DNA of 64,000 nucleotides, from NCBI GenBank assembly GCA_964610465.1, contig CAZSWA010000005.1, positions 8,456 through 72,455 of the forward strand. Direction: 5' to 3'. Of the stretch, positions 4,182-51,747 are shown piece by piece (positions within the stretch are counted from its first letter, which is position 1; each line of letters begins with the position of its first letter). The notes under the pieces were generated by a model. It was not told the DNA's origin and did not search any database. It saw only the letters and a list, made by a program, of their open reading frames with translations. The stretch comes from an uncultured Gammaproteobacteria bacterium (GTDB lineage Bacteria > Patescibacteriota > Microgenomatia > Levybacterales > UBA12049). The position numbers and the translations under genes were made by a program.

Positions 4182-4190
4182 AGAAAGAGA

Positions 4191-6326: not shown

Positions 6327-8719
6327 TCACGTATGCCAGACTCTATCATTTCTACCGCACTGCAACACTCCGCAGTATAAGGCTATTAGTATTCTTTCTT
6401 TTACTTTTTGTAATAGTCAATGTAATATCAAGAGGTTTATTTCCTCGGTTTCCTCTTTTTTTGTTAAACCTTTTTATTATGAGTGAAATTTTTTTTCGTT
6501 TTAAAATCGCGCGAACTACACCATATATAAAAGTAACTGCGAATAAAGGAGAAAATCCGCTCATTTCTTTTAGTATGAATGCTCTTTATACGTACTTAGT
6601 GAATCAAAAGTCGTCATCCATTATTGCAAAGCTTATGAGTAATTCTCAAGTTCGTGCAATATTTGAGAAAGCAAATATTCAGGAGAAAGAGTTGTCTCTT
6701 CTTGACTATGAAAAAAATCTACTGGCAAAGACGGCATTTGATGTGGCAAGAAATAGAAATGGCCAATTTGTAACTACAATGGATTTGATAACTGCGTATC
6801 TTCTTGATACAGAAGGACAAACAAAACTACTCTTTAATAAGAAACTCAAGTCAGAAGAATTATATGCTATTTTGCATTGGGCAAGCAAGAATTTTCCTGA
6901 TGAAGAAATGCCCAAGCAGATAGCAATCCATTTATATGGTTCAGGAATTGGTGAATTTCTCACCACCGGATGGACTCCTGAAACAGAGAAATATACTCGT
7001 GAAGCAATATCAGGAGAAAAACCTCTTCTTATTGGCCGTGAAGGAGAATTTAAATCTCTTACTGATACATTATTGAAACCTGAAAACAACAATGTGTTAT
7101 TAGTAGGTGAACAAGGAGTTGGAAAAGAGACACTTGTACAAGCGCTTGCATATTATAGCATTGATAATGCTCTCTCTGCAAAATTAAATGATAAAAAAAT
7201 ACTCGAATTTCTCGTTGGACCATTTATTGCAGGCGCAAAGGAGAGAGGCGAATTGGAAGAACGATTACAGGCAATACTTGCTGAGCTTTCTCATTCAGGA
7301 CAGGTCATTATCTATATTCCTGAATTTCAAAATATTATTGGTGCATCGTCTTACAATCTTGATATTTCAGGAGCACTGCTTCCTTATCTTCATGATGGCA
7401 ATGTGCTTATTATTGCTACTATGACAAACGGGAATTACAAGAATTACATGGAGAAAAATCCCTTAAAGGAAGTATTTGGCATAATTGAATTGAGAGAACC
7501 TGATACACATACTGCATTACAAATGGTGTTTGAAAAAGCATCTGAGATAGAAAAGAAAACAGGTGTTATCCTGAGTTATCGCGCACTCGTTGCTGCAGTT
7601 GAATTTGCCAACCGCTACTTTCAGGATACTGTACTTCCAGGCAGTGCAATCTCACTTCTTGAAGATGTAGCAGCTAGTACTGCAGTATCAGGCAGCAGTC
7701 AGTATGGGAGTTCTCATCGAAAAATCGTTTTGGAGGAAGATGTCACTCGTAAAATAGAAGAGAAAATGCATGTCGCTATTTCAGCTCCTACTGGACAGGA
7801 AAAAGACTTACTCCTTCATCTAGAAGACAAATTACATGAACGGGTTATTGATCAAGTGGATGCAATTACTGCAATAGCAGAAGCAATGCGAAGAGTACGT
7901 TCCGGTATGATAACCTCAACACGGCCCATTTCATTTCTTTTCTTAGGTCCAACAGGTGTTGGGAAAACTGAAACTGCAAAGGCTTTGGCTGATTTATATT
8001 ATGGAGGAGAAAAAAATATGCTACGGCTTGATATGAGTGAATATGGAGACGAAGAGGGAGTAAAAAGACTTTTGGGTGCTGCACCTGGTGAAGGACGAGA
8101 ACGGGGAGAATTAACCGACAAAATTGCTGATAATCCTTCTTCTTTGGTGCTTCTTGATGAATTTGAAAAAGCACACCCTAAGATACTTGATCTTTTTTTA
8201 CAAGTTCTAGAAGATGGAAGACTTACTGATAATAAAGGACGAACAGTATCATTTATCAATACTATTATTATTGCAACATCCAATGCTGGAGCAGAATTCA
8301 TAAGAGAAGAAATCGAGAAGGGAACGCCAATTGATAAAAATTTCCAGCATAGGCTTTTTGAATATATACAATCCAAACTTATCTTCAAACCTGAACTTCT
8401 CAATAGATTTGATGATGTAGTTACTTTCAAGCCCTTGGGTGAAACAGAAGTCACACAAATAGTAAAACTTATGCTCAATAGCATCAGTAAAGCATTATAT
8501 GAACAGGATATTGATGTCGTATTTACTGACAAAGTTATTGCCAAAATTGCCAAAGAAGGATCTGATAAGGAATTTGGCGCTCGACCTCTTAGGCGTTATA
8601 TTCAGGATACAATCGAAGACGTATTGGCAAAGAAGAAACTTGCAGAAGAAATAAAGAGAGGAAACAGAGTATCTCTGACAACTGATGAAAATAATAACTT
8701 ACAGGTAGTTATTAGCTAA
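6323..8719 (+). CDS. Second Clp/Hsp100-family ATPase paralogue with a hydrophobic, possibly membrane-anchoring N-terminus and a Clp_N-like region. NBD1 is degenerate: Walker A is GEQGVGKET and the Walker B DE is replaced (IIYIPEF). NBD2 is intact. There is no M-domain and no ClpP loop.
   Basis: NBD2 Walker [17 protein letters not shown], Walker B LVLLDEFEKAHP, GARPLRR. The NBD1 motifs can be aligned by eye against ORF 753..4130 ([11 protein letters not shown] vs GEQGVGKETLV; ILFIDEIHT vs IIYIPEFQN). Confidence 0.8.
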   Translation: MITYARLYHFYRTATLRSIRLLVFFLLLFVIVNVISRGLFPRFPLFLLNLFIMSEIFFRFKIARTTPYIKVTANKGENPLISFSMNALYTYLVNQKSSSIIAKLMSNSQVRAIFEKANIQEKELSLLDYEKNLLAKTAFDVARNRNGQFVTTMDLITAYLLDTEGQTKLLFNKKLKSEELYAILHWASKNFPDEEMPKQIAIHLYGSGIGEFLTTGWTPETEKYTREAISGEKPLLIGREGEFKSLTDTLLKPENNNVLLVGEQGVGKETLVQALAYYSIDNALSAKLNDKKILEFLVGPFIAGAKERGELEERLQAILAELSHSGQVIIYIPEFQNIIGASSYNLDISGALLPYLHDGNVLIIATMTNGNYKNYMEKNPLKEVFGIIELREPDTHTALQMVFEKASEIEKKTGVILSYRALVAAVEFANRYFQDTVLPGSAISLLEDVAASTAVSGSSQYGSSHRKIVLEEDVTRKIEEKMHVAISAPTGQEKDLLLHLEDKLHERVIDQVDAITAIAEAMRRVRSGMITSTRPISFLFLGPTGVGKTETAKALADLYYGGEKNMLRLDMSEYGDEEGVKRLLGAAPGEGRERGELTDKIADNPSSLVLLDEFEKAHPKILDLFLQVLEDGRLTDNKGRTVSFINTIIIATSNAGAEFIREEIEKGTPIDKNFQHRLFEYIQSKLIFKPELLNRFDDVVTFKPLGETEVTQIVKLMLNSISKALYEQDIDVVFTDKVIAKIAKEGSDKEFGARPLRRYIQDTIEDVLAKKKLAEEIKRGNRVSLTTDENNNLQVVIS

Positions 8720-8769: not shown

Positions 8770-11700
8770 ATGAAAATAAGGAAAATTTTGCTTTTCATTA
8801 TCATAAGTTCTGTTCTCTTGTTTGTTTCAGAAATTTTTTCCCCTTCACAAGTAGTAGCACAAACGATAACCCCGACATCTACTTCCAGTTCAACATATAC
8901 TATAACAGGAAATTTTTTCTACGATACTAATGGAGATTTAAAGAAAGATAATGGAGAGGTGAATACGAACTATATAGATGTAGCCGGATGTAATAATGGA
9001 ACTCTTTCCTATACTACTCCAGGACAATACAGGATAAGTATAATAGGCGGAGGAACGTGTACCATCAATTACGGAAGTATTACATCGCCACCTGCCGGGT
9101 ATCAGATTACTTATCCTTCCGGAAATCCTCATAGTTTTACGGTAACTATTGGTTCTACCTGTAACGTGGATGGAACAACAGGAGGAACATGTAGTGGAGG
9201 AAATATCAGTAATCTTAATATTCCTCTTGGTGCTACTGCTGCACCTACGCTAACACCTACTCCTACATCAGTTCCCGCTACCTATAAAATTTCAGGTACT
9301 GTATTTGTGGATGCAAATAATGATGGAAAATTGGATAATGGAGAAAGTCCCTACAAAGCAAGCACTATTACTATTTCTCTTTCCGGTCCTGTAAATACAT
9401 TTACTACGACCGCAAATGGTGCATATACCTTCTCAAATTTACCTATAGGAACCTATACGCTAACTATGACGGTACCGGCAGGATATAATACAACTTCTGT
9501 TAATCCAGCAACAGTAACGGTGAACGCTAATGCAACGCAAAATTTTGGAGTTAGTAGTAATGTATGTACTGCGGGTAGTGGAGCTTCCGAGGTTATGCTT
9601 ATGTTTGATCATTCACAAAGTATGGCAGATAAAGACCCTGCAACAGGCAATACTAAAATAAGTGAAGCAATAAAAGCAGCACAAACATTTCTTAATCTGC
9701 TCAATCAAAATAATCCTGGGGTAAAAGTAGGTCTTATTGAATTTGCTGCCGCAGATAACTACCCCAATCTTGCTGATACCTCGGTTGTTGTGCCTCTCAT
9801 TCAACTCTCGAGTAACTATTCAAATCTTTCTAATGCTGTGAATCAAATGAAGATTGCATCAACACAGGGTACCTGTTTTGACTGTGCGGTTGATCTTCTC
9901 AACAAAGAACTGAAAGCCAATAGCACTCCCTCTGCAAAACATTTAGCAATTCTTCTCACAGACGGGAAGGCGAATGAAGATATTGCAAATGGTACCAATA
10001 ATGTCGATCCTACCACTGCAGAAAACGCTGCTATGAATTTAGTCAATTATGGTGATAATAATTTAAACATAGATTATTATACTGTTGGGGTTGGGAATGG
10101 GAATAATATCGACCCTGCATTTCTTCAGCAGATTGCAAACTCAACCGGTGGTCAATACTTTAACGATCCAACCAATGGTGATTTAACTTCTATTTACACA
10201 CAAATTGCCGGTAAACTAAATACTGCAGCAATTAAAGGTATGGTATATAAAGATGCCAATAATGATGGCAAGTACGACACAGGTGATACTCCACTGCAAG
10301 GATGGACAGTGCAAAATACTGGACCTTCAGGTAAGCAAACAGCAACAAGTGATAACAATGGCAAATTTTCATTTGGCAATCTCTGTATTGGACAATATAC
10401 TACTCAGGAGACTCTTCAGTCCGGGTGGATACAAACCCAACCGCAAAATCCCAATTTCTGGACTACGCTAGTAACGAGCGGAAATTCATTTAATAATATC
10501 AATTTTGGAAATTTACAAGGATATACTGTTTTAGGAAGTGTATTTGTAGATGTAAATAAAAATACTACTAAAGATAGTGGAGAACCAAATTACACAGGAT
10601 TACCTATACAGATTAACACGAGTGCTCCAGGAGCAACTGTGAGTTACCCAAGTCCTGGTACATTTAAAATAAGCGGAATAACTACAATTAGTGCACCAAT
10701 TAGTGTACAGTTTACAAACGCTTCTACAATACTGAATACAGGGTACCAAATGATTTACCCGTTAGGTACGCCTCCAGCTTTTTCTGTTACTGTAGGTCCG
10801 TCATGTAATATCAAGAGTGTATCAAACGGAGCACAATGTGACGCATCAGGCAATATCTCAAATCTCAATTTTGCTATCAGTAATTCATATCCTTGGATGC
10901 AATCTTCTGATTTAAATATCCGTGATGATTTCGGATTTAGTGACAATATCTCTTCTACTTCTTTGTGCACCGATTATACCTCAAAACCTGATGCATCATC
11001 AGCGAATCCCGGATATCCAGGAATAATTTTTTCTGGGCAAGTAAATGCGTTCTTCTGGCAGGGCAAGGCATCAAAAAAAAATTGGATAGTGGGAAGTTCA
11101 CTTTACCCTGAGGTATTCCAGAGTAGCAGTAATTTAAAAACAGAATACGATTATTTGCTCTCTACTATTAAGAATTCTGGAGCAACTATTACTGATTTTA
11201 CTGCGATTACTGATGCAAGTGGGAATCATACATGTAATAATCTTTCGAATTGTTCATTACCACCTAATCTGGCTCCAGGAGTGTATCAGGCATCAGGAGA
11301 TGTAATACTTACCGGGAGTGGGAGTCCTGTAGCCTATACGTTTTCTGCCAATAACGGACACTATATATTTCTCGTCAATGGAAACATAACGATAAAGGAA
11401 CGAATTGTTACCCCCAATGGGACCAATGCAATATTTTCATCGGCTGGTAATATTATCATTGATAAAACAGTTGGTGCTTCAAGTTTAACTTGCAATGATT
11501 CTCCGGGAGAAATTCAAGGAATTTATAGTGCTGATAACCAATTTATTGTCGATGGCTATCATGATTGTGTTACTCCTCAAGTTGATAGTATATTGACGAT
11601 TGAAGGAACAGTTATTGCCAACGCTGCAAGACAAAATACCCAAGAATCATTCATCTTTAACAATAGAGACTTGTGTGGTAATGACCCAAGTTATCCTGTT

Positions 11701-12920: not shown

Positions 12921-14411
12921 ATGGATAGCAAGAAAAAGATTACTCACAATGAATCAGTTACCTCATTTCCTCCAGTAGTTGCAGTACTTGGTCATGTTGA
13001 CCATGGCAAAACCACCTTACTTGATGCAATACGCAAATCTTCAATCGCACAAAGAGAAATTGGAGGAATTACTCAAAAAATCGGCGCATCATCAATTGAA
13101 ATAATCCATGAAGGTAAAAAGAGAACAATCACATTTATTGACACTCCAGGTCATGAAGCGTTTTCAAAAATGAGAGGAAGAGGTGCCCAAGCAGCAGATG
13201 TCGCACTTCTTATTGTTTCTGTAACTGATGGAGTAATGCCGCAAACCAGAGAAAGTATTGAAATTCTTAGAGAAACAGAGACTCCTTTTATTGTAGTACT
13301 TACCAAAATCGACCTCCCAACCAAAAATCCTGATAAAGTAAAACACGATTTGCTCAAAGAACAGGTTATGCTTGAAGGTTATGGTGGAGAAGTGCCAGTC
13401 ATTGAAGTTTCTGCAAAAACCAATCAGAATGTAAAGGAGCTTTTGGATTTGATTCTTCTTATGTATGATTTTCGTAAAACGCCTGAATATGAAAAAGAAA
13501 TAACAAGCGATGCGTCTTTTCGTGCAGTCGTGATAGAGTCAAAAATGGATAAAAAAACCGGTCCTCTCGCCACAGTTGTGATAAAAAATGGAACAGTTCA
13601 TCTTCGTGATGAACTCCTGGTAGATAAGCAACTATTTAAAGTAAGAGCACTCATCACTACTCAAAACATACAAGTTCAGAAGGCAACTGTTGGTGAAGCA
13701 ATTGAAGTGTTGGGTTTTACAACGGTTCCCGCTGTTGGCAGTATTGTTTCATCCACGGCAAATGCATTACCTCTTGTACAAAACAACTTGCCGGCAACTA
13801 CAAAACAACTCAAAAGAGAACTCATCTATAAAAGAGATGAGACTAAATCCGGGATTTCCGCAATCCTTGTTGCTGATACCCAAGGATCACTCGAGGCAAT
13901 TATGAATGCACTTCCAAAAGATGTTGAGCTTCTTCTTTACAAAACAGGAGAGGTTACAGAAGCAGATATTCTGCTTGCGAAATCCACTGGCTCAATAGTG
14001 CTGAGTTTCAATACTAAAATCCGGCCGGAAGTCCAGAAGCTCGCAATTACTGAGAAAGTCCTTTTCCGCAATTATCAAATCATCTATGAGTTACTTGATG
14101 AGGTACAGGATGCCTTAGAAGGTAAGAAACTTGCTGAGATGGAGCAAGTCTTTGGCAAAGCCAAAGTTTTGGCCAAATTTCCCTTTGAGAAGACCAATGT
14201 ATTTGGCATATCAGTTTCAGACGGGCGTATCGCGCGTGGAGATAGGGTAAGGATTCTAAGAGGTGAGATTCTCATCGGAGAAAGCTCAATCTCATCCCTT
14301 AGAGTTGGGAAAAATCCTACTTCAAAAGTCGAAAAAGGACACGAAGCAGGCATACTTTTGTCTCCTTATCTTGACATACAAGTAGGGGATGTTATAATAC
14401 CCCATAGTTGA
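12921..14411 (+). CDS. infB: Translation initiation factor IF-2, a short form lacking the long N-terminal region.
   Basis: G-domain VVAVLGHVDHGKTTLLDAIRK and DTPGHEAF. nusA-infB synteny. 496 aa. Confidence 0.9.
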   Translation: MDSKKKITHNESVTSFPPVVAVLGHVDHGKTTLLDAIRKSSIAQREIGGITQKIGASSIEIIHEGKKRTITFIDTPGHEAFSKMRGRGAQAADVALLIVSVTDGVMPQTRESIEILRETETPFIVVLTKIDLPTKNPDKVKHDLLKEQVMLEGYGGEVPVIEVSAKTNQNVKELLDLILLMYDFRKTPEYEKEITSDASFRAVVIESKMDKKTGPLATVVIKNGTVHLRDELLVDKQLFKVRALITTQNIQVQKATVGEAIEVLGFTTVPAVGSIVSSTANALPLVQNNLPATTKQLKRELIYKRDETKSGISAILVADTQGSLEAIMNALPKDVELLLYKTGEVTEADILLAKSTGSIVLSFNTKIRPEVQKLAITEKVLFRNYQIIYELLDEVQDALEGKKLAEMEQVFGKAKVLAKFPFEKTNVFGISVSDGRIARGDRVRILRGEILIGESSISSLRVGKNPTSKVEKGHEAGILLSPYLDIQVGDVIIPHS

Positions 14412-15388
14412 TGAATTCAGTAGCTATGGATAACAATACAGTTCAACGGATAAAAGATATCATTGCAAAGGGTGAGAATCTCTCAATTGCGGTTGGGAAA
14501 AACCCTTCACTGGACGAGATGGCGGGAGCGCTATCTCTCTTTTTGGCCTTCAGAGAAGCAAATAAAAGAGTAAGTATTGCATGTCCAACAGACCCACTTG
14601 TTGAGATTTCCTCTCTTGTCGGAATTGACAAAGTCCAAAATAAACTCTCAGGAGATGGGGGAGATCTCACTGTTTCTTTTCCTTATCAGGAGGGAGAGAT
14701 AGAGAAGGTTTCCTACACTGTTGAAAATGGCTATCTCAATATTATTGTAAAAGCTGGCGAGCATGGACTTTCATTTGACGAACGGGATATTAAATATATC
14801 CGCGGTGGAGGATTAATTGATTTGCTTTTTATCGTTGGTACCCCAAGCCTTTCTGATCTTGAAGGATTATACGATGAAGAAAAATTCCGCGATACAACTG
14901 TTATCAATATCGACAATAAACAAAATAATCAAGGGTTTGGAGACGTAGTACTCGTATCTCCCAAATTCTCATCTGTGAGTGAACAGATTACCGATTTTAT
15001 CCTTTCTTTAGGTCTTCGAATTGATAAGGATACTGCACAAAATCTCTTAAGCGGTATTATACAGGCAACTGATAATTTTCAAAGCCCAAATACAAGTATG
15101 GTTGCATTTGAGATGTCAGCATTTCTCATGAGAAAAGGCGCACAAAGGCCAGGCGCTCGTGAACATCTTGAACAAAGAGAACAAAGACAACGTCCTCAAC
15201 TTTCTCAGAGGCAAAATCAACAGAGAAGGTTTGATGATACCAGACAACAGCATCAGTCTCAACCTCAACAGCAAGCTCAATCTAATCGACCTGCACCTGA
15301 AGAACCAGAAGAAAATCAACAAGATGAGGAAAATCCGCCATCTGACTGGCTGACTCCTAAAGTCTTTAAAGGCTCATCCAATGTCTAA
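14408..15388 (+). CDS. DHH-family (NrnA-like) protein with degenerate catalytic motifs and a Q/R-rich low-complexity C-terminal tail. Start overlaps the infB stop (ATGA).
   Basis: NrnA-like layout at the position NrnA/RbfA genes usually occupy after infB. Motif I reads KNPSLDEMAGALSL instead of HxNPDGDAxGS, and the DHH position reads IDNKQNNQGFGDVVLVSP. Confidence 0.4.
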   Translation: MMNSVAMDNNTVQRIKDIIAKGENLSIAVGKNPSLDEMAGALSLFLAFREANKRVSIACPTDPLVEISSLVGIDKVQNKLSGDGGDLTVSFPYQEGEIEKVSYTVENGYLNIIVKAGEHGLSFDERDIKYIRGGGLIDLLFIVGTPSLSDLEGLYDEEKFRDTTVINIDNKQNNQGFGDVVLVSPKFSSVSEQITDFILSLGLRIDKDTAQNLLSGIIQATDNFQSPNTSMVAFEMSAFLMRKGAQRPGAREHLEQREQRQRPQLSQRQNQQRRFDDTRQQHQSQPQQQAQSNRPAPEEPEENQQDEENPPSDWLTPKVFKGSSNV

Positions 15389-15714: not shown

Positions 15715-17985
15715 ATGGAAAAAACCTCAGTAACACTCGATTTTGCAGGAAAAACTTTAACACTTGAAACAGGTGATTTAGCAACTCAAGCAACATCTTC
15801 AGTACTTGCCAGACTTGGTGATACTATGGTATTGGTAACGGTAGTTGAAGGACTTGAGAGAAAAGATGTTGATTATTTCCCTCTTTCAGTTGAATACGTC
15901 GAAAGACTCTATGCAGGTGGACGCATCAAAGGAAGCAGATGGGTTAAGCGTGAAGGACGACCATCTGATGAAGCAATTCTTACTGGACGTTTAATTGACA
16001 GATCAATTCGTCCACTTTTTCCAAAAGAGTTCAAAAAGGATGTACAGGTAGTTATAACTGTACTTTCAGTTGATGGAGAAAATGAACCGGATATTTTGTC
16101 CCTTATCGCAGTATCTGCAGCGCTTAGTATTTCACGAATTCCTTGGAAAGGGCCAATTGGTGCAATACGAATAGGACTTGTCAAAGATGAAGAAGGAAAT
16201 ACAGAGTATCTTCTCAATCCAACAGTATCAGAACTCGAATTTTCAGAGCTTGATTTGGTAGTATCCCAAACAAAAAATAAAACACATATGATAGAGGCAG
16301 GGGGTTTGCAAGTTCCAGAAGAACAAGTGGAAGAAGCCATAAAAAGAGCTCACGCAGAAACTGAAAAAGTAATTGAGTTTATCGAAGACTTAACCAAAAA
16401 AATCGGACAGAAAAAAACTGCTGTTACTCCAAATGTACAACTTTCAGAAACAGTCGCACGTCTTGAAAAAACATACAAAGAAGAGATTCTTGAATTAGCG
16501 AAAGCACGCGCCAATAGAGAAACTGGACATGAGGAGACAGACGAACTTATTGATAGAATTTTTGAGCAGGAAAAACTTGCCAATCCATCACTTGAGATTG
16601 ACAAGAAAGTTATTGCCGCTGCAATTGAGTACATCATGTTTAAGCAAATCAGAAAAGATGTTGTTGAAAAAAGCAAAAGAATTGATGGAAGAAAAATTGA
16701 TGAGATTCGTCCATTGGGAGCACGAGTTTCCGTACTTCCTAGAACTCACGGTTCAGCACTTTTTCAGAGAGGATTAACACAAGCTTTAACTGTTGCAACA
16801 CTTGGTTCTCCCCGTCTTGAGCAGATTATTGAATCAGCAGAAGGAGAAGAAACCAAACGCTATATTCATCATTATTCAATGCCGCCATATTCAGTTGGAG
16901 AAACAGGAAGAATGGGGACTCCAAGTAGACGGGAAATAGGTCATGGAGCACTCGCAGAACGTGCACTGCTTCCGGTAATTCCAAGCAAAGAAAAATTTCC
17001 CTATACTATCCGGGTAGTTTCAGAAATTCTTTCATCAAACGGAAGTACGTCAATGGCATCAACATGTGGTTCAACCCTTGCATTAATGGATGCCGGAGTA
17101 CCAATTGAAAGTCCAGTTGCCGGTATCTCAATTGGCATGATGTCCAATGAAGAGAAATATGTACTTCTTACAGATATCATTGGACTTGAAGATTTTTCAG
17201 GAGATATGGACTTTAAAGTCGCAGGAACTGAAAAAGGAGTTACCGCAATTCAACTTGATGTAAAAATTCCAGGTCTTACACTTGAGCAAGTAAAAGAAAC
17301 CTTCAAACGCGCACGGGAAGCACGTATGATTATTTTGGAAAAAATGCTTTCTGTAATTCCTCAATCACGTGAAGCTGTATCTGAATATGCGCCAAAGATT
17401 GAACTTATCAAGATTCCTCTTGATAAAATCGGAGAAGTAATAGGCCCCGGAGGACGAAATGTCAGAAATATTATTGCCCAGACAGGTGCTACAGTTGATA
17501 TAGAAGATGATGGTACAGTTACTGTTACTGGTCTCTCGGAAGAAGAAGTCAAGAAAGCATCAGACTGGATTAAAGGCATGACAAGGGAGGTTACACCTGG
17601 AGAAGTATTTGAAGGAGAAGTAAAAAGAATTCTTCCTTTTGGTGCATTTGTTGAGTATTTGCCAGGAAGAGAAGGAATGGTACATGTTTCTAAAATGGGA
17701 CGCGGATTTATCAAAAGTCCTGAAGAAGTAGTATCAATCGGTCAAAGGGTCAAAGTAAGAGTGAGTGAAATTGATGATCAAGGAAGAATCAATCTCTCTA
17801 TGCTTTTTGGAGAAGACGCAGAACAAAAGCGTAGAGATGTGCATGAAGATAGAGGAGACAGAGGAGAACGCCGTCCACGACCTGGAAGTGGAACCGGCAT
17901 GCATCCTTTATCACGTCAATTCCAGAGAGAACGAAGTGGTAGCCGTACTAATAACCGTAATTCCGGCCGCAAACGCTTTAGATAG
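15715..17985 (+). CDS. pnp: Polynucleotide phosphorylase (two RNase PH domains, KH, S1) with a C-terminal R/G-rich tail.
   Basis: RNase PH core motifs, KH (GPGGRNVRNIIAQTGATVDI), S1 (GEVFEGEVKRILPFGAFVEY). Follows rpsO. Confidence 0.9.
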   Translation: MEKTSVTLDFAGKTLTLETGDLATQATSSVLARLGDTMVLVTVVEGLERKDVDYFPLSVEYVERLYAGGRIKGSRWVKREGRPSDEAILTGRLIDRSIRPLFPKEFKKDVQVVITVLSVDGENEPDILSLIAVSAALSISRIPWKGPIGAIRIGLVKDEEGNTEYLLNPTVSELEFSELDLVVSQTKNKTHMIEAGGLQVPEEQVEEAIKRAHAETEKVIEFIEDLTKKIGQKKTAVTPNVQLSETVARLEKTYKEEILELAKARANRETGHEETDELIDRIFEQEKLANPSLEIDKKVIAAAIEYIMFKQIRKDVVEKSKRIDGRKIDEIRPLGARVSVLPRTHGSALFQRGLTQALTVATLGSPRLEQIIESAEGEETKRYIHHYSMPPYSVGETGRMGTPSRREIGHGALAERALLPVIPSKEKFPYTIRVVSEILSSNGSTSMASTCGSTLALMDAGVPIESPVAGISIGMMSNEEKYVLLTDIIGLEDFSGDMDFKVAGTEKGVTAIQLDVKIPGLTLEQVKETFKRAREARMIILEKMLSVIPQSREAVSEYAPKIELIKIPLDKIGEVIGPGGRNVRNIIAQTGATVDIEDDGTVTVTGLSEEEVKKASDWIKGMTREVTPGEVFEGEVKRILPFGAFVEYLPGREGMVHVSKMGRGFIKSPEEVVSIGQRVKVRVSEIDDQGRINLSMLFGEDAEQKRRDVHEDRGDRGERRPRPGSGTGMHPLSRQFQRERSGSRTNNRNSGRKRFR

Positions 17986-18161
17986 TTTAAAATTAAGAAG
18001 CATCCCACAGGCCTCTGCGAGGGATCTTCGAAGAATCAAGAAATAAGGAAATAAAATCGTAAACCCCAAATACCAGGCTCTAAATAAATTCGAAATTACA
18101 AAAAACAAATATAAACTCCATCTCTCTTTTGTCTTTTTATAAAATCATGTAATATATTATT

Positions 18162-19289
18162 ATGGATATTAATGGGAAAACGCAGTCGTCTTCTGGAGAT
18201 TCTTCATCTCAAAATGCAGGTGATCACGGTGAATCATATGATCAGGTAAGACATCTTGGAGAACTTGTGGAAAATGCTGAGTTGCCAGATGATCTAAAGC
18301 AAACTTTAAATGATAGAATTTCGCGTCTTGCACTTATCCGCTCAAGCTCCGGCTTTATGAGTACTACGTACATATTGGAATATGAGAGCACATCTTCCTA
18401 TATAAACTGGATTGTTGGACTTCCCTGGGATAAAAGCAGCAAAGATATTCTTGATTTACAAAAAGCAAAGGAAATCCTTGATAAAAATCATTTTGGATTG
18501 GAAGGTATAAAAAGCAGAATTCTTGAATATCTTGCAACCATTATTCTTAATACCAAAAACAATACCAAAGAGAATTTGCAGCATGCGCCTATTCTTTGTA
18601 TCATCGGACTTGCAGGAACAGGAAAAACGACCTTGGCAAAATCAATTGCAGAAGCATTGGGGAGAAACTTTGAGAGAATTCCGTTTGGAGGTATGGCAGA
18701 CTCACGTGCTTTAAGAGGCCAATCGCGAGCCTTTGCGGATGCAGAACCTGGCTCAATTATCAAAAAATTGGTGCATGCCAAAACCAATAATCCCGTGATT
18801 CTTCTTGATGAACTGGATAGGGTTACTGAATCTGCACGTGCAGATATTATGGGAGTACTTCTTGAAGTGCTTGACCCTGGACAAAATACAGCATTTACTG
18901 ATCATTATATTGATTATCCATTTAATCTTTCTCAAGTTTTATTTGTCGCAACAGGGAATAATACTACTAATATTTCAACTGCTGTTCTTGATAGACTTGA
19001 TATTTTACAAATGCCTTCCTACACTGATGAAGAAAAACTGGTGATTGGGGAGAAATATCTTTTTGAGAGGATTCGTAGAGAAGTTGGGCTTACTCCACAA
19101 CAACTGCAAGTTGATGAAAATGTCTGGCCCAATGTCATCAGACCTCTTGGATTTGATTCAGGAATCAGAAGCTTAGAACGTACTATAAATGGAGTATGTA
19201 GAAAAGCAGCACGGCTTATTGTTGAAGGAAGTGCACAAAATATACGGATAACTCCTGAGAATGTGAAAGAATTTCTCCCGAGTTGGTAA
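18162..19289 (+). CDS. Lon-like AAA+ ATPase module only. It lacks the N-terminal LAN substrate-binding domain and the entire C-terminal S16 protease domain.
   Basis: Collinear with the Lon ATPase region: LPWDKSSKDILDLQKAKEILDKNHFGLEGIKSRILEYLA, Walker A GLAGTGKTTLAKSIAEALGRNFERIPFGGMADSRALRGQSRAF, Walker B ILLDELDRV. The ORF stops where the Lon protease domain would begin. The next gene is RNase J. Confidence 0.75.
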   Translation: MDINGKTQSSSGDSSSQNAGDHGESYDQVRHLGELVENAELPDDLKQTLNDRISRLALIRSSSGFMSTTYILEYESTSSYINWIVGLPWDKSSKDILDLQKAKEILDKNHFGLEGIKSRILEYLATIILNTKNNTKENLQHAPILCIIGLAGTGKTTLAKSIAEALGRNFERIPFGGMADSRALRGQSRAFADAEPGSIIKKLVHAKTNNPVILLDELDRVTESARADIMGVLLEVLDPGQNTAFTDHYIDYPFNLSQVLFVATGNNTTNISTAVLDRLDILQMPSYTDEEKLVIGEKYLFERIRREVGLTPQQLQVDENVWPNVIRPLGFDSGIRSLERTINGVCRKAARLIVEGSAQNIRITPENVKEFLPSW

Positions 19290-19350
19290 CTGGCGCCTTT
19301 TTTCTACTTGTGAAAGTTCAACGATATCAGTATACTGTACAACATAAAAT

Positions 19351-21036
19351 ATGGTTGATGAAATAACTACTGTTCCCCAAAAAGAAGATACTGTTTCATT
19401 TATCCCTCTTGGTGGAATTGAAGATGTAACTCGCAATATGTATCTGTATATTTACAAAGATCAAATACTGATAGTAGATTGTGGGCTAGGGTTTCCTGAT
19501 GAAACAATGCTTGGGGTTGATTTATTGCTTCCTGATATTTCTTATTTATTAAATACCACTAAAAAAATCGTTGGAATGGTTTTGACTCATGGACATGAAG
19601 ATCATATTGGCGGTTTGCCTTTTATCTTGCCGCAATTGCCGTCCTTTCCAATTTATGCCAGTCCGCTGACTGCAGCACTTGCCAATGAAAAACTAATAGA
19701 GTTTAGTCTAGCTCCATCCGTTCAAACAGTGCCATTTGATAGCGGAGATATAAAAATTGGTGATTTTACTACGTCTTTTCTTAGAGTAACCCATTCAGTT
19801 CCGGATAGTGCCAATATTGTCATTAAAACTCCTGTTGGGAATTTGTTTCATGGAAGTGACTTCAAATTTGATTTGACTCCTGCTGACGGGAAAAGAACGG
19901 AATTCTCAAAAATACTCAAAGCTTCAGAAGAACAAGTGCTTTGTCTTATGTCTGACTGTTTGGGAAGTGAAAGATCAGGATTTACACCATCTGAGGAAAT
20001 GCTTGAACAAAATTTTGAGCGGGAAATGCGTGAATGCAAAGGCAAATTTATCATTACTACCTATTCATCCAATGTCTCACGTCTTAATCAAGCCATACAA
20101 GTTGCACAAAGACTTAACAGAAAAGTATGTTTTGTAGGACGCTCGCTTGTGAAAGTCAAACTTATTGGACAAAAGATGGGGTACCTCGCCCTGAATAAAG
20201 GAACAGAGGTAGCAATTGATGAATTATATAAATATAAAGATAATCAACTTCTTCTTCTGGTTGCAGGAAGTCAAGGGCAGGAAAATTCCGCAATGTCGCG
20301 CATTGCAGAAGGTGAACATAAGGAAATAAAACTTACTCCACAGGATGTAGTAGTTTTTTCATCTGATCCAATACCAGGCAATGAAGTAGCAATTAATGCG
20401 CTCGTTGATACTATTTCCAAAAGGGGAGCACGTGTTGTCTCATCTGCTAATTCACACGAAATCTTTCATGTCTCAGGGCATGGCTCATCAGGTGATCATA
20501 TGCTTCTTATTGCCCTTACCAAACCTCGTTTTATGGTTCCAATATCAGGCACGTATCGGCAGATGGTCAACTATCGGGACCTGACCCAAAAAATGGGATA
20601 TAAAAGGAGTGACTTATTCCTTATTGAAAACGGCCAGGAAGTGGTATTTGGAAAAAATTCCATGAAACTTGGAAATTTAATTGATATTAAAAATGTATAT
20701 GTAGATGAAATGTCAGGAGAGGAACTTGAAAATTTCGTCATAAGAGATAGAGAAAAGCTTGGTAAGGAAGGAATCGTCATTGTAATGGCAGAAATTAATG
20801 CGTCAAACGGAAGACTTGCCAGCAAACCGGAATTTATTATGCGCGGGTTTGTATTGCAGGATGATAAACTCTCGTCATCTCTTATGAAAGAGATGGAGAA
20901 AAGTTTTGCAAACTACAAGGGAAGAGTATCTAATTGGCCGCATATGAGAAAACTGGTTGGTGATACCACAGAGCGGTTCCTCTACAAACGCTATCATCGC
21001 CGTCCACTCGTCATCCCCGTTATCATAGAGGTCTAA
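19351..21036 (+). CDS. rnj: Ribonuclease J (metallo-beta-lactamase / beta-CASP family)
   Basis: HxHxDH motif LTHGHEDHIGGLPF. Size and layout typical of RNase J. Confidence 0.85.
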   Translation: MVDEITTVPQKEDTVSFIPLGGIEDVTRNMYLYIYKDQILIVDCGLGFPDETMLGVDLLLPDISYLLNTTKKIVGMVLTHGHEDHIGGLPFILPQLPSFPIYASPLTAALANEKLIEFSLAPSVQTVPFDSGDIKIGDFTTSFLRVTHSVPDSANIVIKTPVGNLFHGSDFKFDLTPADGKRTEFSKILKASEEQVLCLMSDCLGSERSGFTPSEEMLEQNFEREMRECKGKFIITTYSSNVSRLNQAIQVAQRLNRKVCFVGRSLVKVKLIGQKMGYLALNKGTEVAIDELYKYKDNQLLLLVAGSQGQENSAMSRIAEGEHKEIKLTPQDVVVFSSDPIPGNEVAINALVDTISKRGARVVSSANSHEIFHVSGHGSSGDHMLLIALTKPRFMVPISGTYRQMVNYRDLTQKMGYKRSDLFLIENGQEVVFGKNSMKLGNLIDIKNVYVDEMSGEELENFVIRDREKLGKEGIVIVMAEINASNGRLASKPEFIMRGFVLQDDKLSSSLMKEMEKSFANYKGRVSNWPHMRKLVGDTTERFLYKRYHRRPLVIPVIIEV

Positions 21037-21063: not shown

Positions 21064-23085
21064 ATGGAAAACCAGGATGCAGGTTTTGCGGTCGCTACAG
21101 CAGATAGACAAAAATCACATGAAACAGAAACTGATACAAAAGATTTCAATGGGTTCCATGCACGGCTTCTTATCGGTGGAGAAGCCATAAATCCTGACAA
21201 GACTGATTTACCTCTTTTATCAGAAGATTCTTTACATCCAGAAGGCACGTATACAGTTTTGCAAAAAGCTTCAGATAACGAGCGGCTAGAGCATTGGCAA
21301 AGGAAAGGTATTACCAAATTTGAAGATCAAAAGACAAATTGGATAGAGAGTTTTAAAAAATCGATAGATGCTAAAAAAGATTTTTTTACGAATGCAGGAA
21401 AAGAACAAGCTGACCTATATCTAAAGCTTGGAATAGATGTTCAAAGTTTTACTGATGAACAAGCGGAAAATTTTTATAAGAACTATTTCACCGGAGAAAA
21501 TAAAAACTCTCAAATAGATAAATTTATTAATGATATAAAGAATGCGTATACAGAAAATGGCACACTAAATCGTGAAGCTTTAATGCGAAATATTGAAGGG
21601 ATAAAATGGTTGGCAAATGTATTTGGGAGCAATTCTGCAGAAATTATAAAACACGTAACTGATTTTACCACGAGAAATGAAGAAGAAATACGTGAGTCTT
21701 TAAATAGTGTGAATAAAGAAGTAGAGGAAAATGGAAAAAAAGGGCCACGAATTAATATACTTAATTCGTATGAAAAAGAGTTGCTTGCATTTTTATGGAA
21801 ACATGGAAAACCAACTCCTCAGCCAGAACCACAAACAGCACAGCAACATCAACCTGAAGCCACACAAATGCAAAATCCAATTCCTCCAGAAGCAGCACCT
21901 GTAATACAGAATGTTGAGGAATCGTCAGTGTTGGAAGAATTTCCTGAAGCAGAACGTGCGAATGCAGCTTCATATATTGATACGTTAAAAATATTATTGA
22001 ATAATATGCCAGAAAAAAAGCAAGAAGAGTCCTTTCTATTTAAGAAAATATACGATGAGCATCAAGGGAATATGGAAGCATGGGTAAAATCTTTATTAGA
22101 ATTTTATAAAATTAGTTCAAACGGTTCAAGTTACGTGCTTTCAATTTTAAGAAACCATATAGGAGAAGTAACACAATTAGTTGGAGGAGAATTTAGGGCA
22201 AAAGCGCTTATCGCAGAGGTACATCGAAAAGAAAAATTAAGTAATCAGGAACCTCAAGAACAAACAGGTGAAGTAAGGAGAACAATAAAACGACATATAA
22301 GACATATTGCCAAAAAAATACTTCCAGCAGAACGCAGAGCTGCAGTTGATAGAAAAACAATCAAAGAAAATCTTCGCTATCTATTCGATAACTATGGAAT
22401 TATTGTAAATATTGGAAGCGCTACTCAAGGAGATGTTGCTCCAACATTTAAAGAAGTTGATATTTCAGAAGCAGCAAAGGCTTTAAGAGCATTAAAAGAA
22501 GAAATAGCAGAATACCCTCGTGAGTATATTGATAATTGTCATTTAGGAAGAATAAGAATTGGAAGTAAAGTTTCTATGACGACTGAAAAAAGTGCAGCAG
22601 AACCTGTAGGTGGTTTTGCAGATTGGCGAGAAGGAGAAAAAAGGCAACTATATTTAGCCTTAGAAGAGTCAGATTCAGCTGATTCAGATCATTTTAGATC
22701 TTCAGTTCATCATGAGCTCTTCCATATGAGTGATAAAAATTTAGAACATAGTTTTGAAGAAATTGATGAAGAGTGGAGTAGATTAAATCCTGGAGGGAAA
22801 TCTGATTATTTAAGACGCGGTTATAGCGTATGGCACGACCCCAACAGCACAACACAACAAACTGAGCGTTCGTCAGGGTTTGCAAATGCATACGGAAAAG
22901 AAAATGAATGGGAAGATAGAGCTACTGTTGCAGAACTCTTGATGACAAATCCGAAGGAAGCAGAACGATTAGCAGAAGAAGATCCGGTATTAAAAGCAAA
23001 AATTGAAAAAATAAAAGAACTCTATAAACAAAGAAGTAACGGGAAAATGGATGATGAATATTTTAGAAACCTTGCATATAAATAG
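21064..23085 (+). CDS. Hypothetical cytoplasmic protein with a C-terminal zincin-like HExxH motif (HHELFHMSDKNLEHSF), reminiscent of the DUF45/SprT/WLM pattern. Function unknown.
   Basis: Long ORF with no signal peptide. A single HELFH with a downstream EHS..F and acidic residues. Central P/Q-rich linker. Confidence 0.5.
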   Translation: MENQDAGFAVATADRQKSHETETDTKDFNGFHARLLIGGEAINPDKTDLPLLSEDSLHPEGTYTVLQKASDNERLEHWQRKGITKFEDQKTNWIESFKKSIDAKKDFFTNAGKEQADLYLKLGIDVQSFTDEQAENFYKNYFTGENKNSQIDKFINDIKNAYTENGTLNREALMRNIEGIKWLANVFGSNSAEIIKHVTDFTTRNEEEIRESLNSVNKEVEENGKKGPRINILNSYEKELLAFLWKHGKPTPQPEPQTAQQHQPEATQMQNPIPPEAAPVIQNVEESSVLEEFPEAERANAASYIDTLKILLNNMPEKKQEESFLFKKIYDEHQGNMEAWVKSLLEFYKISSNGSSYVLSILRNHIGEVTQLVGGEFRAKALIAEVHRKEKLSNQEPQEQTGEVRRTIKRHIRHIAKKILPAERRAAVDRKTIKENLRYLFDNYGIIVNIGSATQGDVAPTFKEVDISEAAKALRALKEEIAEYPREYIDNCHLGRIRIGSKVSMTTEKSAAEPVGGFADWREGEKRQLYLALEESDSADSDHFRSSVHHELFHMSDKNLEHSFEEIDEEWSRLNPGGKSDYLRRGYSVWHDPNSTTQQTERSSGFANAYGKENEWEDRATVAELLMTNPKEAERLAEEDPVLKAKIEKIKELYKQRSNGKMDDEYFRNLAYK

Positions 23086-30185: not shown

Positions 30186-30926
30186 TTACATTTTCTCAAG
30201 TTTTGCTTTAATAATCAACCTTTTCCATGTAGTTCCAGGAGGTGTGCAAGTAACAAGAGTGAGATAGCTATCAGTAAAGTCTTGAATGAGTGGAGAAGTG
30301 TCTGTGGCATCAACAATAGTTATAGAAAATATTCTATAGCTATAGGTAACATCTGCGACATGAGCCATGATAATATCATCTATTTTTAATGTATGAGCAG
30401 TTGCAAAAATCGCAGTATAGTCTTTGGGATTAAACCATTGAGGAAGAGTGGAATGTCCAAAAATTACTGCATTGCCTTTATTGGGTGGAATTGCCGTACC
30501 TGCATAATTTACCAGATGGTCTTTTAAATTATTATCAACTGTTGTGACTTCTGCATTTTCAATATTCAATTTTGGTATTGAGATTGTATATGATGAAACC
30601 TGTGAATCAACAGAACCATCCTCATATCCATTTTTTGCGGTAGGAAACCAGTTTTTCGCGTTGTTATAATCAATTCCGCGTAGAGAATTTTCAGTTGCTT
30701 CAAAAAGACTTTTTATAATATTGGGAGTCAAAATGGTAGTTCTTGGAATTGGTGCAACAATTTCCTCTGATGCAAACGCGGGCTGTAAGTAGAGTTGCCA
30801 TGAGATAAGAGGAAAAAACAAATAAAGTCCCAACACCAAACCCGTTATGATAAGACCAAGTCCTAAAAAATGGAGTACTTTTTTTGTAAAAAGTGTATCT
30901 CTTTTTGTGTAGATATATTTACTCAT
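30186..30926 (-). CDS. Sortase-family transpeptidase
   Basis: N-terminal TM anchor. Catalytic His region AVIFGHST. Signature TLxTC (YLTLVTCTPPG) with the catalytic Cys. Confidence 0.8.
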   Translation of the reverse strand: MSKYIYTKRDTLFTKKVLHFLGLGLIITGLVLGLYLFFPLISWQLYLQPAFASEEIVAPIPRTTILTPNIIKSLFEATENSLRGIDYNNAKNWFPTAKNGYEDGSVDSQVSSYTISIPKLNIENAEVTTVDNNLKDHLVNYAGTAIPPNKGNAVIFGHSTLPQWFNPKDYTAIFATAHTLKIDDIIMAHVADVTYSYRIFSITIVDATDTSPLIQDFTDSYLTLVTCTPPGTTWKRLIIKAKLEKM

Positions 30927-33333
30927 CAGATTTTATGGAAAGCGTTATATGTGAACTACTATGAGGAAGAGACTTTGGAATAAAAGGAATATAAGGGGAT
31001 AATTTGATATCACTGCTTTCAATTTGGGGAAGTGCTGAAAGGAGAGTAAGTGCATCTTTATATGATTTTCCTGCAAGTTTATTAATAATATCTTGTTGGT
31101 TGATATTGGGCAAAATACCAGCTTGTACGGCAATGGATGCGGCAATCTCTTTCTCATTTTTTTGTTTCATATTAGTAAATGAACTTTTAATACTTTTATC
31201 TGAGAAGGATGTGTCTGATGCATAATGTTTTCTTAAGAATTGTTGTGCAAAAGTTAGGACATCATCATTTTTGTATGCGATTCCCTGAAAGGTTACATCA
31301 GCGGTAAGTTTGACAGTAGTTGCCTGATCGCCTATATTTTTATCAACATTTGTTTTGCCAAGCGAACTGTTTATAATAATAGGAAGTACAGTTTGCCCGC
31401 TTTGCGCTTTTGAAGAAATATCGCTTTGCGCTTTATCCTGTAGGCTATTAATCACATCAGTTTTTAATTTATCAATATCAGCTTTGGCTACCACCGTTAC
31501 TGTCTTCTTGGTTCCTCCTGAAAAGGCACTGTCATTTTTCCCAGCAAGTGAACTGCTGCTTGCCACAGTAAATTTTGTTGCAGAAGGCAGATTGTAATCT
31601 GTTCCAATATCTTTGGCTGTCACTGTAACTTGTGCAGTTCCAGGTTTGGTTCCTGAAAAGATATCGCCAGAGGCTGAAGCAACATTTATGTCTTTATCTA
31701 AAGTAAATAACAAACCATTTGATGATTTAATTTGGGTTCCTGCACTTAATTGAGCATTAGAAGATACATCACTGTTATATATTGTGACAGTTCCCTTCGC
31801 AGGTGTTCCAACTTCCGTTTTGCCTGTTGCATTGGTTGAATCTGATCCACTTAATGTATCTGAAACGGATTGAGCAGCGATGATGTTATTGCCAAAATCA
31901 TTGGTACCATCAGTATTGAAAATCACTGAATCAGTTTGCTCAACTATTTTTGGCTTTATTGAAACAATGACACTCGCTTGTAATTTTGAACTATACAGAT
32001 AGTAAGCGCCTATAATTAAGAGAACAAGGATAACAATTCCTGCGATTGGTAATATGACACTATTTTTGCCGAAAGGGAGAGAAGGAAGGCGAGGGAGAGA
32101 AATTTTGTCCTTGAGTGACAAAAGATTAGATAAAAATGCAAAGTTTGCTGTTTTGCTTTTATAATCCCCACTACCAATTCGTGTTCTATTAGTTGATTGA
32201 ACAGTTTCATCAAATTGTTTGGGTTGCATATGCAATGTATTAGTATCTTCTTCATCCTCATCAGTTTCTTCTTTTTGTTCAGAGGATGAGTGGATAGTAA
32301 AATGAGGTTCTGTATCAATGGTATCTTCATCAATAGCATCTTTTCTTTCTGGATTTTCTTCATAGACTTCTTCAATATCTTTATCCATTACAAAACCAAA
32401 ATTATCCGAAGCGATATTTTTAGGAAGAGTATCTACTGGAGTTGTACTTGATAGAACCGGCGCATCTTTTATTTTCACCGGTTGTGAGGTATCAGACCCT
32501 AGAGGTGTTTCCGGTCTGGTTGCTACTTTCTGGTCGTAATTTTTGATTGTTTCAGACGGAGCATCAGACATGGAAGGCAGCATTTCAAGCCCCATTTGAT
32601 TTGCAGCACCCGCGACAACTGCTTTTGCATCAAAGTCAACAGGAAGTACGGTTATCTGAGGCATATGAAGGAAGGGAAGACTTTTACTCCACTGAAAGGA
32701 AATAAATTGTTGAGCGATATCTTCTGAATTTTGGGTGTGAAAAAGAATAATGCGGGAAGGGAGGACATCAATAGTGAAATGTTTAAGCTGCGTATCTACT
32801 GTCTGGGTAACTGATTCCTCTATAGGTCCGCTTATTGTTTCAAGATTTTTTCCGCCTCTTACAAGAGTAAGAGTTGTATTGGTATTTCCTATCTCAACGA
32901 GAACTGCTGAAATAGGTGCTCCTTCTTCTTCTTGCATGAGGTTGGCAATTGCCTCACTTATCACAATAAACCCCATGGGAGACAAATCAAGACTATTACA
33001 GACCTTTTTCAGTTTTGCAAGATACTCTTTTTTTATCTTTTTTTCTTCAACCCAATTTTCTTTGACGCCAAAAACCGTTTTGTGAGTTTCGATATGAGGA
33101 GGAAGTATCTCTTCTGCATGACTTATCGTCTTATCAATAGTTTCAATTAAGTCTTCAAGTTCAATTTCTTCAATTGACTTGCTGAACTTTTCGGTTTGCT
33201 TACTTAAGACTTTTATTTTACCTTCTGTTTCTTCAAGAATAACAGCACTTACTTTCTCATCATTGAGTAAGAGCGTGAGGTAATAGTCTGATTTGTCCTT
33301 ATTATTTCCAAATGAAGGTATAGGCAGTTTCAT
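30919..33333 (-). CDS. Bitopic membrane protein. The N-terminal cytoplasmic domain is actin-like (PilM/FtsA-like). It is followed by a single TM helix and a large S/T-rich extracellular region. Its last 8 nt overlap the start of the sortase gene.
   Basis: PilM/FtsA-like phosphate-2 region AVLVEIGNTNTTLTLVRGGKNLETISGPIEE. N-terminal DYYLTLLLNDEKVSAVILEE. TM segment ILPIAGIVILVLLIIGAYYLY. Confidence 0.45.
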   Translation of the reverse strand: MKLPIPSFGNNKDKSDYYLTLLLNDEKVSAVILEETEGKIKVLSKQTEKFSKSIEEIELEDLIETIDKTISHAEEILPPHIETHKTVFGVKENWVEEKKIKKEYLAKLKKVCNSLDLSPMGFIVISEAIANLMQEEEGAPISAVLVEIGNTNTTLTLVRGGKNLETISGPIEESVTQTVDTQLKHFTIDVLPSRIILFHTQNSEDIAQQFISFQWSKSLPFLHMPQITVLPVDFDAKAVVAGAANQMGLEMLPSMSDAPSETIKNYDQKVATRPETPLGSDTSQPVKIKDAPVLSSTTPVDTLPKNIASDNFGFVMDKDIEEVYEENPERKDAIDEDTIDTEPHFTIHSSSEQKEETDEDEEDTNTLHMQPKQFDETVQSTNRTRIGSGDYKSKTANFAFLSNLLSLKDKISLPRLPSLPFGKNSVILPIAGIVILVLLIIGAYYLYSSKLQASVIVSIKPKIVEQTDSVIFNTDGTNDFGNNIIAAQSVSDTLSGSDSTNATGKTEVGTPAKGTVTIYNSDVSSNAQLSAGTQIKSSNGLLFTLDKDINVASASGDIFSGTKPGTAQVTVTAKDIGTDYNLPSATKFTVASSSSLAGKNDSAFSGGTKKTVTVVAKADIDKLKTDVINSLQDKAQSDISSKAQSGQTVLPIIINSSLGKTNVDKNIGDQATTVKLTADVTFQGIAYKNDDVLTFAQQFLRKHYASDTSFSDKSIKSSFTNMKQKNEKEIAASIAVQAGILPNINQQDIINKLAGKSYKDALTLLSALPQIESSDIKLSPYIPFIPKSLPHSSSHITLSIKSDE

Positions 33334-49775: not shown

Positions 49776-51747
<1,972 letters not shown>

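Follow-up and report, generated by a model that had tools for sequence, protein, structure and literature searches.

In the 64-kb stretch of contig CAZSWA010000005.1 analysed here (64,000 nucleotides, hereafter the window), the gene lonAAA lies between pnp and rnj and very probably represents a functional and conserved family of LonA-derived AAA+ ATPases that has no protease domain. Read from its sequence, the product would be a ring-forming, ATP-driven remodeller or chaperone without a peptidase of its own and with an altered range of clients, a reading to which we assign a probability of about 0.55. The original prediction had offered two options for the gene, a remnant of lon or a genuine Lon-derived unfoldase. 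The first did not survive comparison with more than 120 clusters of homologs, in which the stop is fixed and the catalytic residues are invariant, and the second stands as far as a genuine gene is concerned, its unfoldase activity being something that we infer. The gene and its parts are as follows:

18162–19289, plus strand: lonAAA, a complete coding sequence of 375 amino acids with an ATG start and a TAA stop, a stand-alone LonA-type AAA+ ATPase by its open reading frame (ORF) and its Pfam, NCBIfam and PDB matches.
18162–18224, plus strand: N-terminal tail, residues 1–21, disordered and of low complexity, with a predicted local distance difference test score (pLDDT) below 50 and a variable length across the family.
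18225–18419, plus strand: three-helix bundle, residues 22–86, corresponding to the last three helices of LonA HI(CC) (helices 22–38, 43–63 and 68–86 in the AlphaFold2 model).
18420–18428, plus strand: LPW signature, L87-P88-W89, followed by DKSSK; P88 and W89 are shared by all of the 120 family members and 52 canonical Lons compared.
18606–18629, plus strand: Walker A, GLAGTGKT, residues 149–156; G149 through T157 are invariant in the family.
18714–18752, plus strand: pore loop 1, RGQSRAFADAEPG, residues 185–197; the canonical counterpart is RGHRRTY[VI]GA[LM]PG.
18795–18812, plus strand: Walker B, VILLDE, residues 212–217 (LLDE at 214–217); D216 and E217 are invariant.
18819–18854, plus strand: pore loop 2 region, RVTESARADIMG, residues 220–231, without an aromatic residue and aligned to KMSSDFRGDPSS of Bacillus subtilis.
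18957–18959, plus strand: sensor-1, N266, invariant in both the 120-member and a diverse 18-sequence alignment.
18993–18995, plus strand: arginine finger, R278, equivalent to R484 of Meiothermus taiwanensis (Mta) and Escherichia coli (Ec) Lon; invariant.
19026–19274, plus strand: AAA+ lid (small alpha) domain, residues 289–371, matched by Pfam Lon_lid, with the invariant sensor-2 residue R336 at 19167–19169.
19260–19289, plus strand: C-terminal tail NVKEFLPSW followed by TAA; the end position is conserved in close homologs.

The homology to Lon is confined to the ATPase part of the protease. The NCBIfam profile TIGR00763 (lon, endopeptidase La) matches lonAAA with E = 6.6e-98, at profile positions 245–571 of 795 only, and the whole-protein score of 329.1 bits stays under the family cutoff of 608.05 bits, as does the score of 258.6 with NF008053 (cutoff 891). 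Pfam places an AAA domain at residues 145–282 (E = 3.3e-19) and Lon_lid at residues 307–358 (E = 3.3e-11), and the protein gave no match to Lon_C or LON_substr_bdg. The top sequence match in the PDB is B. subtilis Lon (3m6a, E = 4e-77), in which query residues 26–372 align with chain residues 7–338 of 543, so that lonAAA stops at the boundary between the AAA+ module and the protease (P) domain. Across the three-helix bundle and the AAA+ module, lonAAA is about 40% identical to LonA, and the 60 residues between K155 of Walker A and D216 of Walker B correspond to the spacing of the LonA type (PMC9569914). The predicted collinearity with Lon from the LPW motif through the AAA+ domain, with good Walker A and B motifs, is thus borne out, as are the end of the ORF where the S16 protease domain would begin and the lack of the Lon N-terminal region (LAN), for which a dedicated profile search was also negative.

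On the N-terminal side, the TIGR00763 and 3m6a alignments place the start of the Lon homology at about Lon position 245, and the ordered part of EcLon likewise begins at residue 245, with a three-helix bundle (PMC8244335). Many columns of this bundle are invariant in the family, including R52, R55, R60, Y70, E73, E75 and W83, and the distance from the N-terminus to the LPW motif ranges from 68 to 196 amino acids among the 120 homologs. An AlphaFold2 monomer model computed from the 120-sequence alignment (pLDDT 87, predicted template modelling score 0.80) consists of the disordered tail (residues 1–21), the three-helix bundle (residues 22–86), an alpha/beta nucleotide-binding domain and a helical lid, and its top Foldseek matches are LonA AAA+ modules. 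With 6n2i, the engineered protease-less fragment EcLon(235-584), it reaches template modelling scores of 0.82 (query-normalised) and 0.90 (target-normalised). The crystal of this fragment shows an open hexameric ring or spiral without the P domain (PMC6722904). Given the start of the Lon homology and the likeness to 6n2i, the natural lonAAA comes close to the laboratory “A-domain” construct, with nearly the same boundaries and fold, although EcLon(235-584) is a laboratory truncation and has canonical pore loops.

The short architecture is shared by a whole family, present in many of the ultra-small Patescibacteria. Searching 5.8 billion proteins yielded more than 120 clusters that are 66–76% identical to lonAAA, all of 357–485 amino acids, with AAA and Lon_lid and without Lon_C; where named, these close clusters belong to Levybacteria, “Patescibacteria group” or Parcubacteria. 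An exhaustive search of representatives at 50% identity added further short members at 41–64% identity, one of them from Dojkabacteria, whereas full-length canonical Lons reached only about 40%. Named members of the family come from Levybacteria, Shapirobacteria and Dojkabacteria. A neighbour-joining analysis was run on 287 columns of the AAA+ core for 20 short and 45 canonical representatives, and in 50 of 50 bootstraps it set the short family apart from canonical Lon as a monophyletic group. Besides this monophyly, its members are marked by a length of about 350–450 amino acids, a Walker A motif of the form G[LVI][AQV]G.GKT, an acidic ..P[DE]AEPG pore loop 1 and the lack of S16 and LAN; the gene of the window shares these features, with GLAGTGKT as Walker A and its pore loop 1 as listed above. 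Among ten of the top-scoring canonical Lon representatives, the named clusters are Deltaproteobacteria, Clostridiales or fish peroxisomal Lon and are uninformative on Patescibacteria.

A decaying lon pseudogene, or an artefact of assembly or of a frameshift, would account for the truncated architecture and for a TIGR00763 score of 329 instead of 608 bits, and for these features only. This explanation is refuted by conservation and its probability is negligible: the same architecture recurs in the more than 120 clusters, which derive from independent assemblies, and at no fewer than 31 loci, and the exact lonAAA protein is present on four contigs. The end of the protein is likewise fixed, since 116 of 120 close homologs stop at the same residue, nine after a conserved Asn (N-[LIV]-K-x-[FY]-L-P-[TSH]-[WY]-COOH). 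K155, T156, D216, E217, N266, R278 and R336 are invariant across the 120 members and the diverse 18-sequence alignment, and the roles of the equivalent ATPase residues, including the arginine finger equivalent to R484, are documented for MtaLonA (PMC8503904). Moreover, lonAAA diverges at the rate of its housekeeping neighbours: between the window and the related loci L001 and L005, the identities are 71–72% for lonAAA, 65–66% for pnp, 55–57% for rnj, 60–61% for infB and 70–72% for ftsK. All these lines of evidence show lonAAA to be under purifying selection, and by its identities it is as constrained as the genes around it. Short architecture, stop position and invariant catalytic residues hence refute a remnant. 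The two findings that, according to the original prediction, would have spoken for one were both looked for: no S16 domain lies in an alternative frame of the window, and the relatives carry the same short gene at this locus instead of a full-length Lon. Together with the refuted remnant, both negative outcomes support a genuine gene.

Two sets of homologs drew attention beside the family itself. The proteins P0122, P0124–P0135, P0139, P0140 and P0142 have 900–1700 amino acids and two or three tandem Lon-type AAA+ modules, and in most of them a PS[AG]G Ser motif stands close to the C-terminus, in the place expected for S16; by sequence they look like multi-AAA Lon proteases. Furthermore, the six loci L005, L006, L009, L010, L011 and L013 (CAZERI01, CAYVKP01, CAYIBX01, CAZGFG01, CAYSMC01 and CAZOSM01) come from records titled “uncultured Gammaproteobacteria” or “uncultured Pseudomonadales” and yet carry the Patescibacteria-type short Lon. 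The nusA-infB-rpsO-pnp-lonAAA-rnj-ftsK block is found in L005, L006, L009 and L010 as well, where the neighbours are 42–81% identical to those of the window. The titles of these six metagenome-assembled genomes look like placeholders or wrong taxonomy.

The missing protease domain was searched for with hidden Markov models (HMMs) of S16 and LAN built from 52 full-length Lons. Neither domain was found in the window, in all six frames read from stop to stop (best E-value above 1), which rules out a hidden or frameshifted protease domain there. For a wider comparison, loci were collected from GTDB species genomes and JGI metagenomes, comprising at least 31 of the short family and at least 133 of canonical lon; both sets are samples and not a census. 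The S16 HMM matched 131 of the 133 canonical loci listed, the two misses being loci cut by contig ends, and in 15 canonical loci inspected individually the match and the AAA+ module shared one ORF. In contrast, neither HMM matched within ±10 kb at any of the 31 short-family loci listed, and an adjacent split-Lon partner is ruled out over this distance. Recoding of UGA or read-through of lonAAA was rejected as well, because the stop codon is TAA or TAG wherever it was examined, with the next gene starting –7 to about 66 nt further on.

Since lonAAA has no peptidase domain, proteolysis by this protein alone is impossible. It could, however, be the unfoldase half of a two-component protease, whose C-terminal tail docks on a stand-alone S16 or on an unrelated ring peptidase. 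Such docking by C-terminal tails is known from other AAA+ rings, namely HslU and PAN/Mpa. In lonAAA, the sharply conserved, aromatic end …FLP[TSH][WY]-COOH (116/120) would offer such a tail, at the very place where Lon continues into its P domain, and stand-alone Lon-like proteases without a working ATPase exist (PMC3391209, PMC13069640). We nevertheless consider this option unlikely. Apart from the lack of S16 at the 31 loci and in the window, a Pfam scan of 34 window ORFs of at least 120 amino acids (pnp, rpoB, rpoC, rpsL and rpsG were outside the scan) gave no ClpP, HslV or S16 and, as the sole peptidase, an S8 subtilase (4191–5924), and no peptidase gene co-varies with lonAAA in the neighbourhoods examined. 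The distant subfamilies also have other tails, e.g., …FVLPDQGPLS, so that no single docking motif is conserved family-wide.

One candidate for a partner peptidase was a 673-aa ORF between rnj and ftsK (21064–23085), which contains an HHELFH (HExxH-like) motif and has no Pfam or PDB match; residues 475–652 show a weak match to the LIC13305 lipoprotein family (E = 3e-18), below the cutoff. It was rejected, having no PDB relative and being absent from the orthologous position in L001–L015, and looks like a lineage-specific insertion.

The near-invariant changes that mark the family are concentrated near the nucleotide site and near the axial pore. In Walker A, the family has GLAG where canonical Lon has GPPG (GPPGVGKTS), and LGFD replaces the canonical YTRE before sensor-2. 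The alignment with 3m6a further shows an insertion of about eight residues in the helical bundle of lonAAA, and the base loop preceding sensor-1, LDP[EG]QN, is conserved in the family. Pore loop 1 reads RGQS[RK]AFPDAEPG in the family compared to RGHRRTY[VI]GA[LM]PG in canonical Lon. Of the 120 members, 104 have F at position 191 of this loop, 8 have Y and 6 have L, which makes the position aromatic in 112, including the gene of the window (Phe). At position 192, 110 members have P and 10 have A, the window gene having the minority residue A192; D193 and E195 are invariant in the 120 members. In distant subclades, the aromatic residue is gone (RGESRIHPDAEPG, RGMSKTSPESEPG, RGRSRGEIDAEPG and KTSPEAEPG), with the acidic P-[DE]-A-E-P-G retained. 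In pore loop 2, A225 aligns with a Phe of B. subtilis; 89 of 120 members have A there, 24 have S and 3 have E. The position presumably corresponds to Trp431 of MtaLonA. Tyr397 and Trp431 of MtaLonA contact the substrate and are needed for degradation (PMC8503904), a requirement on record for MtaLonA only.

These loops would also suit an ATP-dependent switch or assembly factor, which binds and releases a specific partner without threading it. The loss of the pore loop 1 aromatic in several subclades fits this idea, as do the aromatic-free pore loop 2 and the fact that the conserved pore-loop residues are Pro, Asp and Glu instead of an aromatic-hydrophobic pair. However, Phe or Tyr is kept in pore loop 1 of most close members, the one in the window included, pore loop 2 of E. 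coli Lon has no aromatic residue either (Met in the alignment), and the LDP[EG]QN base loop and all ATPase residues for a translocation cycle are intact, and we regard a pure switch as very unlikely. For the remodeller proposed here, an acidic pore loop 1 combined with a pore loop 2 devoid of aromatic residues suggests that the clients are more restricted than those of Lon, perhaps to basic proteins.

The surroundings of lonAAA are conserved too, the usual order being nusA-infB-(NrnA-like)-rpsO-pnp-lonAAA-rnj-ftsK. In the window, the adjacent features are:

15715–17985, plus strand: pnp (PNPase), the conserved upstream neighbour by synteny.
17986–18161, plus strand: intergenic region between pnp and lonAAA, with weak sigma-70-like sites at 18129–18163 (9 of 12 consensus matches).
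19290–19350, plus strand: spacer of 61 nt between lonAAA and rnj, with no terminator predicted.
19351–21036, plus strand: rnj (RNase J), the conserved downstream neighbour, complete with Lactamase_B, beta-CASP and RNase_J_C by Pfam.

The intact RNase J directly downstream had been noted in the original prediction and is confirmed by these domains. Among the loci listed, rnj follows in 22 of 27 informative distinct loci, and the order rpsO-pnp-lonAAA-rnj is kept down to about 50% identity. The lonAAA-rnj spacers measure 61, 19, 36, 13, 7, about 66, 19, 4 and –7 nt in 9 of 11 measured loci, the two genes overlapping in L014, and in the window neither gap, from pnp to lonAAA or from lonAAA to rnj, has a predicted plus-strand terminator. 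Short spacers and the lack of a predicted terminator fit a co-transcription, and from the sequence lonAAA is probably co-transcribed with rnj and often also with pnp. In two loci, additional sequence separates pnp from lonAAA, with a tight lonAAA-rnj junction in both: a gene for an S-adenosylmethionine-dependent methyltransferase in L003 (5619–6479) and about 1 kb of uncharacterised sequence in L014 (about 8976–9977). A 326-aa protein encoded between infB and rpsO of the window (14408–15388) resembles DHH/NrnA proteins only weakly (E = 1e-3 with Pfam and 1e-6 with NCBIfam). At its C-terminus it has a long low-complexity tail rich in Q, R and E, and most related loci have this protein at the same position.

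The fixed position between pnp and rnj would be explained if lonAAA were an accessory of RNA decay, i.e., an ATP-driven remodeller that assembles, regulates or recycles RNase J and/or PNPase. The conserved order, the tight or overlapping junctions with rnj, the lack of predicted terminators and the weakly matching NrnA-like DHH protein upstream are all in line with such a role. On the other hand, the linkage to pnp and rnj is broken in L007, L013, L090, L095 and L097, the protein shows no sequence sign of RNA binding and its pore loops are acidic. The order nusA-infB…rpsO-pnp…rnj…ftsK is, moreover, one which we take to be ancestral in Firmicutes and Actinobacteria, going by the B. subtilis/Bacillus and Mycobacterium tuberculosis/Mycobacterium maps, and the position of lonAAA may accordingly be inherited and not functional. 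A role in RNA decay therefore appears distinctly unlikely.

L007 (7784–11056) and L013 (7914–11062), the two loci of the GTDB scan without both pnp and rnj, belong to one subclade and are 60% identical. In both, lonAAA stands head-to-head with groES-groEL across a shared intergenic region of 90–160 bp, in which TTGTCAAG occurs shortly upstream of the lonAAA start. No convincing CIRCE element (HrcA operator) was found in the groES-lonAAA intergenic regions of these two loci. The adjacency to groESL is an independent hint of a role in proteostasis.

Taken together, we propose that a vertically inherited, LonA-derived gene lost both LAN and S16 and kept the three-helix bundle, the nucleotide-binding domain and the lid. 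Its product would assemble into a Lon-like hexameric ring and use ATP hydrolysis to grip, remodel or unfold clients through the central pore, and could thus act as a proteolysis-free chaperone or unfoldase, by analogy with ClpB or ClpX alone. Several observations weigh against this proposal. The aromatic residue of pore loop 1 is absent in the distant subclades, and Ala or Ser stands in pore loop 2 in place of the B. subtilis Phe; if the position is indeed the substrate-contacting one, this replacement may mean that classical hand-over-hand threading is weakened or lost. The N-terminal region missing from lonAAA has been implicated in the oligomerisation of canonical Lon (PMC8244335). Support from the groESL adjacency is limited to the one subclade of L007 and L013, and CIRCE had no match in the 64-kb window at up to three mismatches. 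Lastly, a peptidase partner may be encoded elsewhere in the genome, the search for one having covered ±10 kb around each gene and the window. As for the operator, the window does contain groEL (50104–51747) although CIRCE is absent from all 64 kb, and the organism probably controls its heat-shock response through another signal.

Compared to known systems, lonAAA is closest to LonA (MEROPS S16, TIGR00763; e.g., B. subtilis, E. coli and M. taiwanensis LonA and human LONP1), with which it shares the Walker spacing, sensor-1, arginine finger, sensor-2, the LDPEQN loop and the fold. It differs from LonA by the lack of the S16 Ser-Lys peptidase domain (PS[AG]G motif), of the PUA-like LAN domain and of the long HI(CC) coiled coil, and by GLAG, the F-P-D-A-E pore loop 1 of the family, LGFD and the bundle insertion. 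All Lons have been defined as an A domain followed by a P domain within one chain (PMC9569914); lonAAA has the LonA-type AAA+ module, but lacks S16 and LAN/HI(CC) and scores below the family cutoffs. LonB and LonBA are set apart by the membrane-anchor insertion in the AAA+ module of LonB, which lonAAA, aligned to LonA without a break, does not have, and by the LonBA spacing of 82 residues instead of 60. Lon-like proteases of the LonC type with an inactive or absent ATPase, MtaLonC and TTC1975 (PMC3391209, PMC13069640), are the mirror image of lonAAA: they retain the protease alongside a dead ATPase, and lonAAA retains the ATPase without a protease.

In a broader frame, lonAAA has the P-loop core, the LDP[EG]QN base loop and the sensor-2 Arg of the HCLR clade of AAA+ proteins (HslU/ClpX, ClpABC-D2, Lon and RuvB). 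ClpB, and ClpX or ClpC without ClpP, provide a functional analogy, being hexameric AAA+ rings that remodel without proteolysis, and the AAA+ module of LonA with HI(CC) has been argued to resemble ClpB NB2 with H1(M) (PMC6722904). The relation of lonAAA to ClpA/ClpB is only distant (NCBIfam E-values of 1e-9 to 1e-4); unlike the Clp unfoldases it has a single AAA+ module, no Clp_N and no M domain, and it nests with Lon.

Two more Clp/Hsp100-type ATPases are encoded in the window (753–4130 and 6323–8719), and the Pfam scan of the 34 ORFs agrees with the earlier remark that lonAAA is the third Hsp100/Lon-type ATPase there without a cognate peptidase. Both lie in a cluster (753–8719) composed of a 1125-aa ClpC/ClpB-like ATPase, the S8 subtilase, which has a fervidolysin-like prodomain, and a 798-aa Clp/Hsp100-like ATPase. 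The former (753–4130) contains Clp_N, two AAA modules, D2-small and about 295 C-terminal residues without a Pfam match, and the latter (6323–8719) has a clear match only in D2. Such an Hsp100-subtilase-Hsp100 arrangement without ClpP is unusual. Elsewhere in the window, on the minus strand (30186–33333), a sortase gene adjoins a gene whose 804-aa product weakly resembles Baseplate_J (E = 7.5e-6), a combination that is odd in a housekeeping region.

In the literature, we found no description of a protease-less Lon, nor of Lon in Patescibacteria or the candidate phyla radiation. Family members are named “ATP-dependent Lon protease” in JGI/IMG and “AAA family ATPase” at NCBI. The former label is wrongly applied, and metabolic reconstructions built on it may ascribe to Patescibacteria a Lon protease that is absent at this locus. 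As a tentative and rather speculative extension, a whole radiation could have turned Lon into a proteolysis-free, ATP-driven machine, either as an autonomous chaperone or by docking of its aromatic tail on a peptidase or on RNase J/PNPase. If the former were true, the long-debated protease-independent chaperone activity of Lon could be its sole selected function; if the tail docks on a non-Lon partner, this would be a hybrid machine of an undescribed kind. A natural and strongly conserved protease-less LonA offers a system for asking what the Lon motor does alone and whether it assembles without its P and N domains. With three Hsp100/Lon-type ATPases and no ring peptidase among the ORFs scanned, the window also hints, pending genome-wide confirmation, that protein quality control in Patescibacteria leans to remodelling over ATP-dependent degradation.

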